Shown: piece after piece, positions 18,293 to 47,231 of the stretch
Layout of the letters: each line of letters opens with the position of its first letter
Numbering within the stretch: position 1 is the stretch's first letter
Source of the DNA: Escherichia coli
GTDB lineage: Bacteria > Pseudomonadota > Gammaproteobacteria > Enterobacterales > Enterobacteriaceae
DNA length: 64,000 nt
Reading direction: 5' to 3' (one strand)
NCBI RefSeq assembly: GCF_011045215.1
Contig: NZ_CP049201.1
Notes under the pieces: generated by a model
Seen by the model: the letters and a program-made list of their open reading frames with translations, nothing else
What the model was told of the DNA's origin: nothing
Database searches by the model: none
Program-made: the position numbers and the translations under genes

Positions 18293-18823
18293 ATGTCGCA
18301 ACCAGAGGAGTTGCGACTCCGAAGATTACATAGGAAATTAATGATTATGGGATTCGTCATTTTCATTGCGATCGTAATTTTATCCATTTACGTTCTTACC
18401 AAATTATTTATTTCAGAAAATTCACACGACAAAATTAGAGCCGAGGCATCCAGAAGAATTGCACAAGAAGAGGCCGAACGGGCTAAGTTGTATGAAGAGA
18501 GAAAGGAATCATCTGATAATCCTGTTAATAAACAAAAACGAATAACAACACACGAAGATCATTTTTATATGGATATTCATGGTGGTCACAAATATATATG
18601 TGTTGATGCTAAGTTAGTTTTTGAATATGCAAATTTAAAACACAACTATTTTCTTCACGCCTCTCACTATTTCCCTGAGTTAGAGTATGTTTATGGAAAA
18701 AACGAACATGGGAAAATAGTTAGAGTAGATTTGTACGATAAAAAAATTCAAGCTATTAACCCCGATACTGGCGAAAAAATACCTGGTGTGAGACGTTATC
18801 TACGACAGCACAAGATAAAATAG
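18293..18823 (+). CDS. Hypothetical membrane-anchored protein (AT-rich cargo gene)
   Basis: 176 aa; N-terminal TM helix MIMGFVIFIAIVILSIYVLTKLF; markedly AT-rich; followed by hairpin+T-run terminators. Confidence 0.45.
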   Translation: MSQPEELRLRRLHRKLMIMGFVIFIAIVILSIYVLTKLFISENSHDKIRAEASRRIAQEEAERAKLYEERKESSDNPVNKQKRITTHEDHFYMDIHGGHKYICVDAKLVFEYANLKHNYFLHASHYFPELEYVYGKNEHGKIVRVDLYDKKIQAINPDTGEKIPGVRRYLRQHKIK

Positions 18824-20086: not shown

Positions 20087-21319
20087 TCACATATTCACTA
20101 CTTTTAGCCCCTGATGACCACCAGAACGACGGATAATTCCCTTTCTGGCATCATCAACAAAATCACCAATCCATTGCATCATGATCTTACGTTGCTCAAA
20201 ATATTTTGAGCGATTATAAATATCACGAATAGCATCGCCGCTTTTATGGGCTAATGCTGCCTCAATAACATCTGGGTTAAACCCTTCTTCGTTGAGTAAC
20301 GTACTCCACATAGCCCGGAATCCGTGGGCAGTTGCAATACCATAAAATTGTCCATCTTTGAAACACTTATGACGCAACACGCTTGATATAGCTTTCCCCG
20401 GATTCTTTGGAGAAAAAAATATATAGCTACCACATTTTATTTTATTCATTTCATTTAAAATATCCACGGCTTGCCGTGAAAGCGGAACTACGTGTTCACG
20501 TCCACACTTCATTCTTTCAGGGGGAATTGTCCAGATACAATTTTCTAAATCAATTTCCTCCCATTTTGCCTCCCTTGCTTCACATGGTCGTACCATAGTG
20601 AAAATCTGGAACAAAAGAGAGCATCTTATAGAGATATTACTTGTAGTATCCCACCAGTTCAAAAATTCTGATAACAGTTCAACTGGTAATGCCTTTAATG
20701 GGGTATGTTTTTTTGTTGCAAATGCATTTCTTATTGTTGATAGCGGGTTATTTTTAATTACTCCAGAGTTAACACAGTAATTCATTATTTCATTAATTTT
20801 TGAAATAATTTTATCCAATACAGAATTACGATCAGAAAATTGATTAAGCAATGGTATGACCACAGGCGCGGTCATATCATGTATGTACACATTTCCAAAT
20901 ACAGGGATTATATGTCTGTTCAATAACTCTTCTATTGTCTGTAAAGTCGACAGTCGCAAATCACCTTTTTTCTTAAAATTAAACCATTCAATTGCAATAG
21001 CACCAAACGTCTGTAAGTGCTTTCTTTTAGCCTCGAGTCGTTTTTCTGCCCGGTATGATAACGGATCTATATCCCGTGCCAACAATCTGCGCAGATTATC
21101 GCGTTCTTCTCTGGCTTCAACCAGCGTGAAATCGGGGTATCGCCCTATAGTGTATGTTTGCCGCTTCTTCGTAAAAGGTTGTACATAACGAAAACGCCAC
21201 GATTTACTACCGGCTTTTGACACATAAAGCAAAAGCCCAAACCCATCATATAGAGCGTAATCTTTCTCTCGTGGCCTGGCGCTTTTTACCTCTGATGCAG
21301 TAAGAGGCTTCACCGACAT
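20087..21319 (-). CDS. Tyrosine integrase, P4/CP4-57 type
   Basis: N-terminus MSVKPLTASEVKSARPREKDYALYDGFGLLLYVSKAGSKSWRFRY typical of P4-like integrases; C-terminal catalytic domain ...AHGFRAMWSTLLNE... Confidence 0.9.
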   Translation of the reverse strand: MSVKPLTASEVKSARPREKDYALYDGFGLLLYVSKAGSKSWRFRYVQPFTKKRQTYTIGRYPDFTLVEAREERDNLRRLLARDIDPLSYRAEKRLEAKRKHLQTFGAIAIEWFNFKKKGDLRLSTLQTIEELLNRHIIPVFGNVYIHDMTAPVVIPLLNQFSDRNSVLDKIISKINEIMNYCVNSGVIKNNPLSTIRNAFATKKHTPLKALPVELLSEFLNWWDTTSNISIRCSLLFQIFTMVRPCEAREAKWEEIDLENCIWTIPPERMKCGREHVVPLSRQAVDILNEMNKIKCGSYIFFSPKNPGKAISSVLRHKCFKDGQFYGIATAHGFRAMWSTLLNEEGFNPDVIEAALAHKSGDAIRDIYNRSKYFEQRKIMMQWIGDFVDDARKGIIRRSGGHQGLKVVNM

Positions 21320-30790: not shown

Positions 30791-31421
30791 TTTATCATTA
30801 ACATTTACAGATAAGATGACGTACATCATTGCAACGCCATTCAGCCATATACCTGTGGCATTCGTTGTTGCACTCCGTAACCCTGCGACTAAAGTTGAAA
30901 GCATGGCCATCTTTTGCCACCGGCAAATCTTCAATGGATTTCCCCTGCCGGTTTTTTATTTTCGTCGATGCATAACATTGCATTTACATCAATACCGTCT
31001 ATTGTCATAAGTATGTTGTACCGATGCTCGGGTGATATTGGCGGTCTTCGCCAGCCGGTTCTGTGTAGCTGCTCCCTGTGACCGGTTTTTTATTTCTCAC
31101 ATTATCGCAGCCCCTCACTGAAGGGCTGCTGTAATGCCTGTTACTCACAAATCAAACGAACATGCTGACCACTCATTTCAATGCGTAAGTATTGTGGCTT
31201 GCCGTCAATCAACGCGGTGATTAACTTGTCACCTGTAGGTTTCCACATAATTTTCTCCTGTTTTAATGCCCCTTGCCGCCGGGCAGTTGATCAAAGTTCA
31301 TCTTGATTCGACAAGATTTAGAATGAATAAGATAAAATTGGCACAAGCAGCAGAATTTCATGCTTTCTGGACGCTGGCGCACCCTTCATTTTTCAGCAAA
31401 ATATTCTGCTCTTACAGGCGA

Positions 31422-31577
31422 TCAGTTCTGCATACACTGCCGAACACCGTCGACAATTTCACAGACCTGAGAAGCTGTATCGAAAAGCTGGCGCGCCTTA
31501 TCCAGGCTGACGCACCCCACCAATAAAAAAGGCACCAGTATCGCTACCAGTGCCCATTTCGCCGCCGTTCGCGGCAT
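31422..31577 (-). CDS. Small lipoprotein (possible o-spanin or moron)
   Basis: 51 aa; signal peptide with lipobox LLVGC; last gene of lysis region. Confidence 0.35.
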   Translation of the reverse strand: MPRTAAKWALVAILVPFLLVGCVSLDKARQLFDTASQVCEIVDGVRQCMQN

Positions 31578-31873
31578 TCTGTGTGTCCAGTGTTTTCGGC
31601 TCATGTCACCACCACCTGACCGCACTAACCAACTGTGCAATACCATACAAACACAAGCAAAACGCTCCAGCCTTGATTAACCAGGCGGTAGCTACACTGA
31701 TTTCGCTCGTCACCGGAGCTTTCAGTTCAGGGCCGTTTTTCATTGTCAACCTCAGCAGTATTCTTTTATACTTTCCCACGAGGATTTTTTCCGTATTCAC
31801 TGAGCACAATTTCCTTTTCATCGCGTGATAACTAAAAACCCCGGACTGTTCCAGCAGCCGGGGTTTTATTTTT

Positions 31874-32155
31874 TTATTTACTGGTATGAGTGCGGCATCG
31901 GGCTATTTCATTCCGGGCCTTACTGTCACCGCGACAGATGCAACGCACCGTATCGCCGTTCAGTGTGGTAATGTAAGCCTCATCCTCTTTTTCTACCGGA
32001 ATACATGGAATATCCCCGCCCCGGCAATACTCAATTTTTGCAGCAAGATGAGTGTCACGCGGATAGAACTCCAGACGATACATATCCCCCAGGACATGCA
32101 CTTCCTCAACCTGACGGCCATCTTTAGTTACCGTTATTTTTTTCAGTGCGTACAT
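31874..32155 (-). CDS. Hypothetical Cys-rich protein
   Basis: 93 aa from MYALKKITVTKDG... with GGAGG RBS; several Cys pairs; downstream of endolysin. Confidence 0.35.
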   Translation of the reverse strand: MYALKKITVTKDGRQVEEVHVLGDMYRLEFYPRDTHLAAKIEYCRGGDIPCIPVEKEDEAYITTLNGDTVRCICRGDSKARNEIARCRTHTSK

Positions 32156-32222
32156 ACGTACCTCCGTTCTTTCGTTTTTTGAGTAATAAAAAAGGCCGCC
32201 ACAGCGACCTTTGCCAGTACGT

Positions 32223-32789
32223 TTACAAACCAACGCGCGCTTTCATCCAGCCATAGACAAACGACTCATTGGCCTCGCGTTTCTCTGCCAGCTCCAGATA
32301 ACGCTCGCCCTGCGTACAGTTCAGGGCTTTCACCAGTACCAGTTCACCATCCCTGCTGCGATTTTTCAGATATGCCCGTAACGCATTAAGAGTACGCGGT
32401 CCGATGCGTCCATCTGCATCCATATCCGGATAGAGTTTCCCGCGCAGGTTAAAAACATTCAGCCAGCGCTGAAGCATTCTGGACGCCACGGCTGGTCCCA
32501 TGTTCACGCCCGTGTCGCACAACTCTGCGGCAATATCCGGAGACAGATTCTCAACCTGGTCGAATCGTGGTCCGTACCAGTAGTCCGCCTCGAGTATTTC
32601 CAGCGCCTGCCCACGCGTCAGGTCACGCATATCGCCCTGATAACCGTGTGCACGGGCAACTTTTTCAGTGATGCCCCATTTAGTCGGACCACCTTTATCA
32701 TCCGGGTGATTGACGTAACCGCCCTCTTTTCCCAGAATTTCGTCAAAAATTTCATCTTTCGACTTCATATCAGCGCCTTCGTAATACAA
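32223..32789 (-). CDS. Endolysin (GH108-like muramidase with peptidoglycan-binding domain)
   Basis: 188 aa; ...EGGYVNHPDDKGGPTKWGIT... typical GH108 N-terminus; follows holin-like genes. Confidence 0.75.
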   Translation of the reverse strand: MYYEGADMKSKDEIFDEILGKEGGYVNHPDDKGGPTKWGITEKVARAHGYQGDMRDLTRGQALEILEADYWYGPRFDQVENLSPDIAAELCDTGVNMGPAVASRMLQRWLNVFNLRGKLYPDMDADGRIGPRTLNALRAYLKNRSRDGELVLVKALNCTQGERYLELAEKREANESFVYGWMKARVGL

Positions 32790-33060
32790 GGATTTTTGAT
32801 ACGTTCCCGCGTGCTCGTATCACCAGCACGCAGAACACCAGGTTAATCAGGACGACCAGCCAGTTACCGGGTGGAAAGCGACCACACAGATAACAAAGCG
32901 GCGCAAAGGCATAAAGCAGCATCAGCAGCCAGGCCAGCCACGACATCAGCGGTTTATGTCTCGACTCACCACGACGATAAAAAAAGAGCGTCAGCACGAT
33001 AACCGTGCTTAACACCACATTCAGTAATCCGGGAAGGTTACTTAACATTACCGCCTCCAC
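32770..33060 (-). CDS. Holin/antiholin-like membrane protein
   Basis: 96 aa with 2-3 predicted TM helices, immediately upstream of endolysin. Confidence 0.5.
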   Translation of the reverse strand: MEAVMLSNLPGLLNVVLSTVIVLTLFFYRRGESRHKPLMSWLAWLLMLLYAFAPLCYLCGRFPPGNWLVVLINLVFCVLVIRARGNVSKILVLRRR

Positions 33061-33427
33061 CCCGCAGACGGGAGAACAGCCCGGATACCAGCGATGCGAT
33101 ATCCTGCTGGTGGATGAATGAGAGAATCTTCACTGACACCACCGATACCAGTACCGCACAAAGCGCGTCGAGAGATGTGCTGTGGAGATTCAGTTTTTCA
33201 ACCAGGTAAGACGCCATCACATCCGCCCCCAGCACGCCAACAATGAACGACACCAGAAAATGCGCTGCCACACGCCAGACAGAAATCTTCTGTGGTATCG
33301 TGGCCACAAACAGCGCCCCTGCGAATGCACCAAACACAATCCCGAAATCCGTTCCGGTAAACAGCCCGAATACCGTCGCCCCGCCGAGCGCCGCAGCCGT
33401 GCCGGAACCGGATAAGGGTTCAGACAT
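33038..33427 (-). CDS. Putative holin
   Basis: About 130 aa from MSEPLSGSG...; Gly/Ala-rich TM helices; ORF track start 33640 probably over-extended. Confidence 0.5.
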   Translation of the reverse strand: MSEPLSGSGTAAALGGATVFGLFTGTDFGIVFGAFAGALFVATIPQKISVWRVAAHFLVSFIVGVLGADVMASYLVEKLNLHSTSLDALCAVLVSVVSVKILSFIHQQDIASLVSGLFSRLRGGGGNVK

Positions 33428-33896
33428 ACTTTTTCTCCTGTAAATAAAAAAGGGCCGCTGTCGGCCCGTAAAAAAACACCCCGTCAAAGGCACCCGCAGA
33501 TGCCTTTTGTGTGGTGTTATCTGGTGTTTTCTGATGTGGTGTGTGCAGGACACAGATGTGAAAAAGGTCCGCCGGTACGAACCCTGTGTATGGATAAAAA
33601 AATGCCCGTCATGAGACGGGCTAACGCATTCATCATGCAAGAGTTAAGCAGGATTACCTGTATCGAATTATCGGTATCAGAATGAGTCGTCAACCTGCAA
33701 CGCAATTCTGACGAATCGTAGACCCCGGTTCAGGCGACGACTCATTCTGATAACGCATACCATTAACAATGTAAAAAACACAGCACTGAAACTGTAACCG
33801 GCCAGGCATTACAGAATGAAGAAAATAAAGTGTCCGCAACCAGATTCTTCACGAAAATTCGTCAGTGCTGATAAAGCTATGACTCATCAGTTTTAC

Positions 33897-33972
33897 TGGA
33901 GAACGGTGGCGGGAATCGAACCCACATCATCAGCCTGGAAAGCTGAGGTAATAGCCATTATACGATACCCGC
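33897..33972 (-). tRNA. tRNA-Gly(UCC)-like sequence, acceptor stem imperfect (possible pseudo-tRNA)
   Basis: Minus strand GCGGGTATCGTATAATGGCTATTACCTCAGCTTTCCAGGCTGATGATGTGGGTTCGATTCCCGCCACCGTTCTCCA: D-, anticodon- and T-arms like E. coli glyT, but 3' acceptor strand CACCGTTC does not pair with 5' GCGGGTA. Confidence 0.5.
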
Positions 33973-34190: not shown

Positions 34191-35237
34191 TTAAAAATCT
34201 TTCGTTATTTCTCTGACCGTCTGATTAAAACGTTCCTCTTCCAGTTCCACGCCAATCGCCCTGCGTCCCAGCAACAGTGCCGCTTTTATCGTGGAACCTG
34301 ACCCCATAAAAAAATCTGCGACCAAATCGCCTGGACGGCTGCTGGCAGTAATTATCTGACGCAACATATCCGCCGGTTTTTCACAGGGATGTTTGCCCGG
34401 ATAATACTGCACGGGCTTGTGCGTCCAGACATCCGTATAAGGAACGACAGCCGATACGGAAAAATAACGCCGCAGTGATTTGTATTCCTCCAGCAGGCTG
34501 ACATATTGCCGGTTCAGTTCGCTGTATGTGCTGACCAGCTGGTGATGTGGCTGCTCCAGTTCACCGCGCTGGTGTTTTTCTGCCGCCACACGTGCAAACA
34601 GCGCCTGCAGTTTACTGTAATCGGCCTCATTCGGTAACTGCCACTGACTGGTACCAAACCAGTGCGAAACCATGTTTTTCTTTCCGGTGGCTTCAGCTAT
34701 CTGTTTTGACGTTATCCCCAGTGATTCACGCGCATCACGGAAGTAAGAAATCAGCGGGGCCATCACGTGCTGTTTAAGCTCGCGCCCCTTTGCCGCATAG
34801 CCGTCATTTTTTGGCTGGTATGGCCCCTGATAATGTTCAGCAAACAGAATGCGCTCTGTTGCCGGGAAATACGCCCGCAGGCTTTCCTTGTTGCACCCGT
34901 TCCAGCGTCCGGACGGCTTCGCCCAGATAATGTGGTTCAGCACATTAAAGCGCTCACGCATCATGATTTCGGTGTCAGATGCCAGGCGATGACCACAGAA
35001 CAGGTAAAGACTTCCGGCAGGCTTCAGTACCCGCCAGAACTGCGCCAGACATCGGTCCAGCCATTGCAGGTAATCATCGTCGCCCTTCCACTGGTTATCC
35101 CAGCCCTCGGGCTTCACTTTAAAGTATGGCGGGTCTGTGACTATCAGATCGACAGAGTTTTCCGGTAATGTCCGGATAAATTCCAGGCAATCCGCGTTGA
35201 TTAACTCACAACTGGATATTTTTACAGTATTAGCCAT
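34191..35237 (-). CDS. DNA methyltransferase (DPPY motif; N6-adenine or N4-cytosine), orphan
   Basis: 348 aa; IVTDPPYF near N-terminus and FMGSGST near C-terminus; no adjacent restriction endonuclease gene. Confidence 0.85.
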   Translation of the reverse strand: MANTVKISSCELINADCLEFIRTLPENSVDLIVTDPPYFKVKPEGWDNQWKGDDDYLQWLDRCLAQFWRVLKPAGSLYLFCGHRLASDTEIMMRERFNVLNHIIWAKPSGRWNGCNKESLRAYFPATERILFAEHYQGPYQPKNDGYAAKGRELKQHVMAPLISYFRDARESLGITSKQIAEATGKKNMVSHWFGTSQWQLPNEADYSKLQALFARVAAEKHQRGELEQPHHQLVSTYSELNRQYVSLLEEYKSLRRYFSVSAVVPYTDVWTHKPVQYYPGKHPCEKPADMLRQIITASSRPGDLVADFFMGSGSTIKAALLLGRRAIGVELEEERFNQTVREITKDF

Positions 35238-35902: not shown

Positions 35903-36913
35903 TTGTACGAAATACATTACGACGTTGAGTCTGAACAGCAAGCTTTTGAATTACTTGAACGTTACCTAAACGGACAAGCTTTACCCGAAAAAATTAGTTT
36001 CAATGGTTGGCCAAGTCTAACCATCAGGTTGACTGGTGAAAAATTCAACAAATCACTCACACCTTCAGTTATGAAAGGATTTGTTGAAATGCAATCGCAA
36101 CTCAATAAGTCTTATGCGCTAGCAAAGTTCGGAACTCCTGATGTCCGCAGGCTAACAAAAGAAGAACTTGATGCTTTAGAAATTGAAGTTACAGTAGAGC
36201 AAGGTTCATCTCTTGTAGAGATTAACATTGATGGCTTCCTAAGCAAGCTTACGCACGAACTGGTAGGGAAAATGAACGCCACAGAGATTGTATTTACGGT
36301 TCTCGGTGCTGCCGTTATATGGGGCGGTGTAACCGTCTTCAAACGCTATCTGGATAACCGTAAAGATACTCGGTTGGCTGAAATTGCTAAAGAAGGCGAC
36401 AAAGAACACCTACGCGCAATGCAAGTGATGACACAGGAGGAAACAAAACGCCTCCAAATCATCTCAGAAATGGTGGCTAAAAAACCTCTACTCGACAATA
36501 TGGATCGAATGTCTTATGACGCTAAAACCACCATGGTTAAATCTTTCGTGCGTTCAGATTCAGCAGAAATTGACGGTGTCACAATAGATTCAGAAACGGC
36601 AAAAGAGCTAGTAACAAATGCTCGTCGACGCTCAGTTGAAATGAGAATAGACGGTATATACCGTATCGAAGAAGTGAATAATACCGACCCCGAAAGCTTC
36701 AAAGTTAAGGTTCGAAAGGTCGATTCTGATCAACGTTTGACCTGCGTTGTTCAGGATATATTCCTTGATGAATCAGGGAACAAAGAAGCCTTACAGCGAG
36801 CTGAATGGGAAAGAAAGCCTGTGCATTTAAGCATCAATGCCAAACACATTGATGGAGATATCAAGTCCGCCGTAATTTTACATGTGAAAGATGTTGAAGA
36901 TAAGCCCGAGTAA
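35903..36913 (+). CDS. Hypothetical protein, reverse-oriented AT-rich moron downstream of Q
   Basis: 336 aa, opposite strand to all flanking late genes, one central hydrophobic segment (IVFTVLGAAVIWGGVTVF), low GC; no family recognised. Confidence 0.5.
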   Translation: MYEIHYDVESEQQAFELLERYLNGQALPEKISFNGWPSLTIRLTGEKFNKSLTPSVMKGFVEMQSQLNKSYALAKFGTPDVRRLTKEELDALEIEVTVEQGSSLVEINIDGFLSKLTHELVGKMNATEIVFTVLGAAVIWGGVTVFKRYLDNRKDTRLAEIAKEGDKEHLRAMQVMTQEETKRLQIISEMVAKKPLLDNMDRMSYDAKTTMVKSFVRSDSAEIDGVTIDSETAKELVTNARRRSVEMRIDGIYRIEEVNNTDPESFKVKVRKVDSDQRLTCVVQDIFLDESGNKEALQRAEWERKPVHLSINAKHIDGDIKSAVILHVKDVEDKPE

Positions 36914-36928: not shown

Positions 36929-37318
36929 TCAAGATTCCACTTCGGCATCCATTTCTAAACTTACATCCAACATACTCAGGCAACCGTCGATAAACCCTTC
37001 AGCCATCTGTATCTCTATACGTATCAATTTCTCATCCTTCCAACGCGCCTTTGCAATCTTGCGCTTGGATATCCTGTATAAATAATGTGCCACAAGAAGC
37101 GAATGCTCATAAGGCCTTTTTTGCTTTAAACAAGCAAGACAACCTTCAATAATTAATGCGTCACTATCTGAACAAGCCAGGCGTTTCTTACTGGTATAGG
37201 GCAGAAGTCCCTTAAACCCGGCAGCTATAGGTGAATAGTCCACACCCGAGCTATCACTAGCCGCCCATGCCCCCCAACGCTCAAGAACCATCTGAATATC
37301 ACGCGCCATCGTTACCAC
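36929..37318 (-). CDS. Antitermination protein Q-like
   Basis: 129 aa immediately upstream of late/lysis region and downstream of RusA, Cys-containing; lambdoid Q position. Confidence 0.6.
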   Translation of the reverse strand: MVTMARDIQMVLERWGAWAASDSSGVDYSPIAAGFKGLLPYTSKKRLACSDSDALIIEGCLACLKQKRPYEHSLLVAHYLYRISKRKIAKARWKDEKLIRIEIQMAEGFIDGCLSMLDVSLEMDAEVES

Positions 37319-46738: not shown

Positions 46739-46841
46739 ACAACCTCCAGTTCAACTAATCATAACAATTGTTCACTTAAAACGAACATAAGTCAACACCT
46801 CGAGGAATTGTTAGTGTTCACTGAACGGTTATAATTGCTAA
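46739..46841. promoter_or_regulatory. Immunity-region divergent promoter/operators
   Basis: Palindrome GTTCACTGAAC and related TTGTTCACTT half-sites between divergent repressor and cro-like genes. Confidence 0.45.
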
Positions 46842-47231
46842 ATGGACATGAGAAAAAAGCAATACGACACCCCGCTAGCAGAAAGGTTAGATGCGATCTC
46901 TCAACAGCATCATTTAAGTGGTTCAGATTTAGCGCGTATCGCTGGTGTAGGTCGTTCATCAGTCAACGCATGGAAAAAAAGAGGAACAATCAGTAAAGAT
47001 TCCGCAGCCAAAATTGCAGAAGCCACAAACGTTTCCCTTTCTTGGCTACTGACAGGGAAAGAAGAGACAAATAGAGAAGCGCTTGATGATGACGAGAAGG
47101 CCCTGCTTGATGTTTACAGAAACCTGCCACCTGTAGAACGTAGAAATATGCTGGCAGCTTTTCAAATGCGACTTCAAAAACTGACCGAATTTTACTCAGA
47201 ATACGTCGACCCAATAACACGACAAAAATAA
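46842..47231 (+). CDS. Prophage repressor, HTH (RacR-like; no S24 peptidase domain)
   Basis: 129 aa; N-terminal HTH ...LSGSDLARIAGVGRSSVNAWKK... Confidence 0.6.
   Translation: MDMRKKQYDTPLAERLDAISQQHHLSGSDLARIAGVGRSSVNAWKKRGTISKDSAAKIAEATNVSLSWLLTGKEETNREALDDDEKALLDVYRNLPPVERRNMLAAFQMRLQKLTEFYSEYVDPITRQK

Follow-up and report, generated by a model that had tools for sequence, protein, structure and literature searches.

The 64,000-nucleotide stretch of Escherichia coli DNA analysed here (the window; RefSeq assembly GCF_011045215.1, contig NZ_CP049201.1) contains a lambdoid prophage with its late genes on the minus strand, among them a lysis cassette at positions 31,422 to 33,427. The cassette encodes holin A, holin B, an endolysin, two small proteins designated D and E and, as its last product, the small lipoprotein F, whose role is the subject of this analysis (Table 1). 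By its order (holin_8, holin_3_7, endolysin, F) and its homologous proteins it belongs to the type found in phage phiP27, and it falls into the phiP27/phiSTEC1575-Stx2k/SerU-LTIIb group, along with prophages in about 400 complete E. coli genomes. Identity to the phiP27 genes is 85% for holin A, 79% for holin B and 93% for F, and the endolysin is swapped relative to that phage (GH108 in the window, M15 in phiP27). Holin A, the first gene, is annotated as 'putative holin' in E. coli C5. Holin B, which has a cationic C-terminus, overlaps the end of holin A by 11 nt, and the endolysin gene starts 1 nt past the stop of holin B. The G+C content of the lysis genes is 0.51-0.56. An earlier reading made from the sequence alone (the sequence-only reading) had recognised two holin-like genes and a GH108 endolysin at this place, and both the Pfam and the PHROG matches bear this out.

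Table 1. Features of the lysis cassette and of its surroundings in the window.
Feature	Coordinates	Strand	Description	Matches
Holin A	33427..33038	minus	129 aa; 3-4 transmembrane domains	PF16931 Phage_holin_8, E 3.7e-22; phrog_198 'holin', E 1.5e-41
Holin B	33048..32770	minus	92 aa from ATG; 3 transmembrane domains	PF05449 Phage_holin_3_7, E 9.4e-21; phrog_217 'holin'
Endolysin	32768..32223	minus	181 aa	GH108 PF05838, E 1.2e-26; PG_binding_3 PF09374, E 2.6e-26; phrog_315 'endolysin'
Terminator-like hairpin with T-run	32185..32212	minus	between endolysin and D	consensus scan
D	32155..31874	minus	93 aa; no transmembrane domain; 5 Cys; GGAGG ribosome-binding site	phrog_33497
Intrinsic-terminator-like hairpin CCCCGG..CCGGGG with T5	31834..31867	minus	directly 3' of D	
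E	31821..31606	minus	71-aa open reading frame; likely starts give 45-56 aa	phrog_1115, E 3.5e-18; phrog_4493
F	31604..31422	minus	60-aa prolipoprotein; lipobox LLVGC	phrog_7528, E 1.4e-38
RNA hairpin with U-run	31530..31555	minus	11-bp stem; within F signal-peptide codons; terminator-like	
Q antiterminator	36929-37318	minus		PF06530
DNA methylase	34191-35237			
tRNA	33902-33972	minus	missed by ARAGORN	Rfam, 36.4 bits (gathering score 29)
G+C-rich terminator-like hairpins with T-runs	33452-33467 and 33604-33621	minus	just 5' of holin A	
35-aa open reading frame MWKPTGDKL...	31141-31248	minus	between F and the terminase genes; strong AGGAG ribosome-binding site	phrog_8025, E 6e-22

The predicted signal peptide of F consists of a 17-aa basic n-region, an h-region (ALVAILVPFLLVG) and a lipobox ending in Cys31, with Val at the +2 position, and is the only hydrophobic segment of the protein. 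The sequence-only reading had described a lipoprotein of 51 aa with an LLVGC lipobox; the lipobox stands but the length is 60 aa, because an upstream ATG carries an AGGTGG Shine-Dalgarno (SD) sequence, the N-terminal extension RKHWTHR is conserved, and the internal Met of the 51-aa form is replaced by Thr in many homologues. Mature F is a Pro-free, amphipathic segment of 30 aa (hydrophobic moment, muH, about 0.5; range 0.45-0.62) with a net charge of -2 to +3. Jpred predicts a helix over 25 of the 30 residues, and the AlphaFold2 (AF2) model is a single helix of low confidence (pLDDT 65) that adds little. Among 22-23 aligned members the positions G30, C31, C48 and C57 are invariant, as is much of the h-region; Cys48 and Cys57 are spaced C-x8/9-C, and the residue after the lipobox Cys is V, A or T. 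The ratio of nonsynonymous to synonymous diversity (pN/pS) over 44 distinct nucleotide sequences is 0.27 overall and 0.24 in the mature part, and by this measure F is under purifying selection and more than a chance open reading frame (ORF). About 160 clusters of F homologues exist, while a profile search of 1.84 billion representative proteins returned 23 clusters only and no named family. Searches for remote homology in Pfam, NCBIfam, PHROGs, PADLOC and PDB profiles also yielded no named family. The G+C content of F is like that of the lysis genes, and no promoter-like site of its own was seen. The hairpin embedded in the signal-peptide codons (dG -22 kcal/mol, z -4.4), also flagged by a terminator scan, has a stem that does not differ by a single nucleotide among the 28 variants, those of Yersinia, Salmonella and Cronobacter included, and synonymous diversity (pS) is 0.14 in this segment versus 0.28 in the mature part.

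In order to place F in its family, 80 loci from IMG/VR were sampled via holin A and 120 via a motif inside F; divergent F homologues of Yersinia, Cronobacter and Salmonella and more distant relatives were added, and genes were mapped by tblastn across the approximately 200 loci compared (numbered L001 onwards). No gene separates F from the endolysin in 31 of 73 cassettes, where F starts at -4 to +15 nt relative to the endolysin stop; the junction is an ATGA overlap in Yersinia and a spacer of 14-15 nt with an AGGTG SD sequence in E. coli and Salmonella. Distant relatives of F (37-65% identity) keep the lipobox and both cysteines and are found 0-10 nt after the endolysin, there behind a lambda-S-type holin (PF05106) instead of holins A and B. 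Endolysins of three types precede F (GH108, M15_4 and an unclassified 131-aa protein), four terminase types follow it, and it occurs both in the myovirus phiP27, with a contractile tail, and in the lambda-like siphovirus phiSTEC1575-Stx2k. F stays 77% identical while the holins drop to 26-28% identity or are replaced and the endolysin families are swapped. F, and not D or E, is the conserved part of the cassette after the endolysin, and the 3' end of endolysin genes is the one thing to which it is linked. This steadiness while holins and endolysins change points to a conserved feature of the host envelope, more than to a phage protein, as the likely target of F. The gene is unannotated in RefSeq E. 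coli C5 (L002 5198-5380) and in phage vB_Apl-pPE4 (PP818812.1 20079-20258), and in phiP27 (L001 4592-4780) another frame is annotated in its place, as L32; the annotation gap is systematic for the F family.

In the six frames of the window a strict search for lipoboxes returned only F and two obvious antisense artefacts, and a relaxed search of the same frames added only antisense noise. F is the sole credible lipoprotein in the window. No match in the window was obtained by tblastn with lambda Rz/Rz1 probes, yet these probes detected real Rz/Rz1 genes in L064, L084, L118 and L188. On the late strand of the window no ORF with an N-terminal transmembrane domain (TMD; one TMD and at least 45 further residues) is present. 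Such ORFs occur on the opposite strand only (18293-18823 and 36272-36913, the second also delimited as 35903-36913, both plus), where a charged helical region follows the TMD; they may be lysogen-expressed morons, and were rejected as an unlinked i-spanin for the wrong strand, the lack of a Pfam or PADLOC identity and the lack of a counterpart in phiP27 or Stx2k. In the minimal cassettes no N-terminal-TMD ORF adjoins F, and apart from the StxB signal peptide no N-terminal-TMD protein is common to phiP27, Stx2k and the window prophage. A 144-aa protein of this topology lies 245 nt downstream of F in L094 and L095 and is absent elsewhere. E was rejected as i-spanin on its C-terminal TMD with about 3 residues beyond, its basic N-terminus and its absence from minimal cassettes. 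The earlier claim that no recognisable spanin pair follows the endolysin is upheld by the lipobox, TMD and tblastn searches, and a canonical i-spanin/o-spanin pair in an alternative frame, looked for in the window, was not found. As expected of an o-spanin, F has a lipobox with a +2 residue other than Asp, from which lipidation and outer-membrane sorting are predicted, and periplasmic cysteines available for putative intermolecular disulfides. A cognate i-spanin (type II, with an N-terminal TMD and a periplasmic coiled coil) and a length that bridges the periplasm are lacking.

The F family has been seen once before in the literature, under a doubtful two-component model. In SpaninDB, phiP27 is filed as having a 'separated' two-component spanin, and with 32 + 30 = 62 residues this pair has the shortest periplasmic span of 528 systems (Kongari et al. 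2018, PMC6139136). The listed o-spanin (51 aa, 20706..20861) is a direct homologue of F with 93% identity. The listed i-spanin (64 aa, 20348..20542; L001 4267-4461, plus strand) has a TTG start, has no homologue in the window or in the other approximately 200 loci, belongs to no PHROG family, and has opposite it, on the minus strand, a 90-aa ORF (L001 4251-4523) that matches phrog_36812 (E 5e-20). Since it is unique to one phage and antisense to a real gene, both the i-spanin call and the pairing are probably spurious. According to the same survey, a role as i-spanin is in principle conceivable for proteins whose TMD is C-terminal (PMC6139136). A literature search for experiments on phiP27-type lysis or on orphan o-spanins found none.

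The slot of F is in some cassettes occupied by Rz/Rz1. In L084 an embedded Rz/Rz1 pair has a 44-aa ORF upstream of it and the MKKLLVTVKPF gene downstream, the two neighbours of F in L002 and L006. L064 and L118 carry an Rz/Rz1 insertion immediately behind the M15 endolysin, and in both the downstream F is without its N-region; L188 has Rz/Rz1 and a frameshifted F. In phage GER2, a 933W-like Stx phage with canonical S-R-Rz/Rz1, a remnant of F is found between Rz and the terminase genes as a pseudogene with three in-frame stops (L096 3474-3680; MG710528.1 ~46781-46987). This pattern suggests that F and Rz/Rz1 may be functionally redundant.

D and E are insertions in a variable slot between the endolysin and F, and not core parts of the cassette. 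The inserts in this slot are 281-1175 nt long and comprise D, unrelated small C-terminal-TMD ORFs (the E types, and ORFs of 44, 49 and 50 aa), a KilA-N gene and other material; at least five unrelated types of small ORF with a single C-terminal TMD are found (phrog_1115/4493, 4906, 12997 and others). The slot is an insertion hot spot (L003, L006, L021, L022, L046, L051, L055, L084), and its cargo includes LT-II enterotoxin genes, the KilA-N gene and an element of the insertion sequence type IS21. D has a G+C content of 0.48, below that of the lysis genes, terminators on either side and a strong ribosome-binding site; its family is found across Enterobacterales, and the confident AF2 model, a beta-meander with a helix, has no informative structural neighbour. 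Its earlier description as a soluble, Cys-rich protein of 93 aa holds for solubility, length and the five cysteines, although these are not kept in its family. D fits an inserted moron-like gene. The small ORF reported between D and the lipoprotein gene is present as E, with a G+C content of 0.45. It has a cationic N-terminus and a single C-terminal TMD (residues 43-68), and only 1 nt separates its stop from the ATG of F; the 3' end of E carries the SD sequence of F. E is missing from 31 of 73 cassettes. It belongs to a set of small tail-anchored membrane proteins that stand in for one another, and as an optional insert it could either modulate the holins, in loose analogy to small lysis factors like Lcc6 of LambdaSo, or be a moron.

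The prophage is embedded in the E. coli chromosome, the cls-kch flank being 99.6% identical to E. coli genomes. Upstream of the cassette are DUF968, RusA and Q antiterminator genes, followed by the DNA methylase and the tRNA; the location of the cassette downstream of Q and the tRNA, on the same strand, supports late expression. Between methylase and holins, relatives have a tRNA gene for Gly, Arg, Thr or Ile at this site. The two hairpins just 5' of holin A lie where relatives have Stx or other toxin genes, and readthrough past them would need Q antitermination. On the 3' side F is followed by the 35-aa ORF listed in Table 1 and by the terminase genes (a Nu1-like small terminase and a large terminase). 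GH108 muramidases and nearby toxin genes in relatives raised a type 10 secretion system (T10SS), that is non-lytic secretion, as a candidate; it was rejected, as the window holds a full late region and no cargo gene.

Compared to known envelope-disrupting proteins, F shows a mixture of features. Like Rz1 and other o-spanins it is a small, predicted outer-membrane lipoprotein with a consensus lipobox and conserved periplasmic cysteines, encoded after the endolysin in the slot held by Rz/Rz1 in sister cassettes. Unlike them it has no i-spanin, be it embedded, overlapping, adjacent or unlinked; the mature part of Rz1 is 40 aa with 10 Pro and unstructured, whereas the 30 aa of F are Pro-free and predicted to be helical, and F has no sequence match to any spanin family. 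Resemblance to the bacteriocin release proteins (BRPs), or colicin lysis proteins, lies in a prolipoprotein of about 45-60 aa, an unusually conserved signal peptide and a mature part close to 30 aa (27-35 aa in BRPs). These proteins permeabilise the outer membrane by themselves, in a manner dependent on OMPLA (pldA); F by analogy would also act alone. BRPs are Gly/Ser-rich, have no extra cysteines and are encoded in SOS-regulated colicin operons, whereas F is found behind an endolysin; in the search against PF02402 Lysis_col the best E value was 0.072, in 1 of 22 members, so that F does not belong to this family. The u-spanin gp11 of T1 is likewise the product of a single gene of a lysis cassette with an N-terminal lipoprotein signal, but its C-terminal TMD and its long, beta-rich domain in the periplasm have no counterpart in F. 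Exclusion lipoproteins such as T5 Llp, phi80/N15 Cor and lambda Bor are also small phage outer-membrane lipoproteins, some of them with disulfides; F differs from these in its coupling to the endolysin gene, in the absence of a family match and in not tracking the tail or receptor module. In a spanin-less coliphage, the phiKT gp28 'disruptin', a soluble cationic peptide, stands in for spanins in disrupting the outer membrane (bioRxiv 10.1101/515445). F shares with it a short amphipathic helix, but is near neutral and, by prediction, lipid-anchored.

Taken together, the most economical explanation, to which we assign a probability of about one in two, is that the outer-membrane step of lysis is carried out by F, or requires it, with no inner-membrane subunit supplied by the phage. 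The cassette would be expressed late, in a Q-dependent manner, from a phiP27-type prophage; holins A and B would permeabilise the inner membrane and the GH108 endolysin would degrade the murein. After export, F would receive its lipid at Cys31 and, consistent with Val at +2, end up in the inner leaflet of the outer membrane, and its cysteines would probably form disulfide-linked oligomers. It may accumulate harmlessly as long as the murein is intact and, once the wall is removed, destabilise the outer membrane alone or via a conserved host envelope component. A helix of 30 residues cannot bridge the periplasm, and the fusion mechanism of spanins therefore does not apply; the mode of action may be closer to that of a bacteriocin-release lipoprotein or of a tethered 'disruptin' than to a membrane-fusing spanin. 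Tentatively, the F family could form a third class of phage outer-membrane lysis effector, consisting of a lipid-anchored, disulfide-bonded amphipathic helix of 30 residues that would breach the outer membrane once the murein is degraded, with neither an inner-membrane subunit nor fusion. The sequence-only reading had left a choice between a stand-alone o-spanin and an unrelated moron. The comparative evidence favours the stand-alone protein, because in minimal cassettes F adjoins the endolysin whatever the holin, endolysin, terminase or tail type and because its G+C content matches that of the lysis genes; the moron label does not fit F, while it suits D and perhaps E.

Several observations weigh against a role of F in the outer-membrane step. 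A helix of 30 residues spans about 4.5 nm and falls short of the inner membrane, so that F cannot act in the way of a spanin. F matches no Pfam family, is named 'hypothetical' in every source and, unlike a disruptin, is amphipathic without being cationic. Its conservation is partly at the nucleotide level, owing to the embedded hairpin. Two terminators lie between the endolysin and F in the window, and co-expression would thus hang on Q antitermination. The redundancy argument comes from four loci, in two of which (L064 and L118) F may still be intact beside Rz/Rz1, and broken copies of F also occur in cassettes without Rz/Rz1 (L170/L128, L140/L160, L189, L201). Both F and Rz/Rz1 are missing from about nine cassettes that have the same holins and endolysin, so that F, or the outer-membrane step as such, may be dispensable there, or the F-less prophages lysis-defective. 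Such cassettes include L003, L026, L068 and L041-L044, and the LT-II prophage SerU-LTIIb is among them.

One alternative is that F is a late accessory lipoprotein without a part in lysis, which masks receptors, blocks superinfection as do Llp of T5 and Cor, or shields the progeny from debris, and is simply carried along where the lysis and packaging modules meet. Small prophage lipoproteins that end lysis regions are often morons, lambda bor being an example, and F lies at a mosaic boundary that takes up toxin genes, insertion sequence elements and small ORFs; the existence of F-less cassettes, and of F alongside Rz/Rz1 in L064 and L118, fits this view as well. However, F overlaps or abuts the endolysin gene and lacks a promoter-like site of its own, its G+C content is that of the lysis genes and not of the neighbouring inserts, and it has no PADLOC match. 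It is also kept without change in phages as different as a myovirus that has tail fibres and a lambda-like siphovirus that has gpJ, and alongside four packaging modules, which means that it does not co-vary with receptor specificity as an exclusion lipoprotein should. In addition it decays in two of the four contexts that carry Rz/Rz1. An accessory role is unlikely on this evidence, and a role for F as the o-spanin half of a true two-component spanin, with E, a holin, or an unlinked phage or host protein as its unrecognised partner, is somewhat more doubtful still. In favour of such a partner are the SpaninDB entry for the phiP27 homologue and the conceivable use of C-terminal-TMD proteins as i-spanins (PMC6139136), the invariant periplasmic cysteines, a hallmark of spanins, and the 144-aa N-terminal-TMD protein of L094 and L095; the stop of E, 1-2 nt from the ATG of F in the window and at many loci, suggests coupled translation. 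Against it, E is absent from the 31 cassettes noted above, it has only some three residues past the TMD, its basic N-terminus predicts a cytoplasmic location, and the slot that it occupies upstream of F is filled by at least five unrelated kinds of small ORF. A specific contact between holin and F is unlikely given how far the holins diverge, or are replaced, while F is kept. The three F-bearing genomes have no N-terminal-TMD protein in common, the phiP27 'i-spanin' occurs in no other phage and lies opposite a real gene, and a joint periplasmic length of 62 residues would be the shortest known.

F might also be no functional protein at all, the ORF being an incidental frame over a conserved hairpin-terminator. 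The invariant hairpin with its U-run inside the ORF and the lowered synonymous diversity of that segment would be expected in such a case, but the constraint on amino acids (pN/pS 0.24) is found in the mature part, outside the hairpin, the lipobox and both cysteines do not vary even at 37% identity, where the nucleotide sequence has diverged, and the conserved start has a good SD sequence, all of which makes this explanation highly improbable. What probability remains falls to other roles of F, for instance in the control of lysis timing.

In this version of the known three-step lysis cassette, an orphan mini-lipoprotein occupies the spanin slot. No spanin can be identified in about 13% of the phages that infect Gram-negative hosts (PMC6139136), and the phiKT disruptin is the only alternative to spanins tested experimentally; F, if the proposed role is true, would be a second. 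The analysis also corrects a probable false i-spanin entry in the reference spanin database, for a family whose gene is usually left unannotated or called in the wrong frame, as in phiP27, E. coli C5 and vB_Apl-pPE4. If true, F would be conserved as the only gene behind the endolysin in enterobacterial prophages that number in the hundreds, the Shiga-toxin phages phiP27 and Stx2k among them. The family is found in genetically tractable E. coli prophages that carry the toxins Stx2e, Stx2k and LT-II, the release of which depends on lysis.

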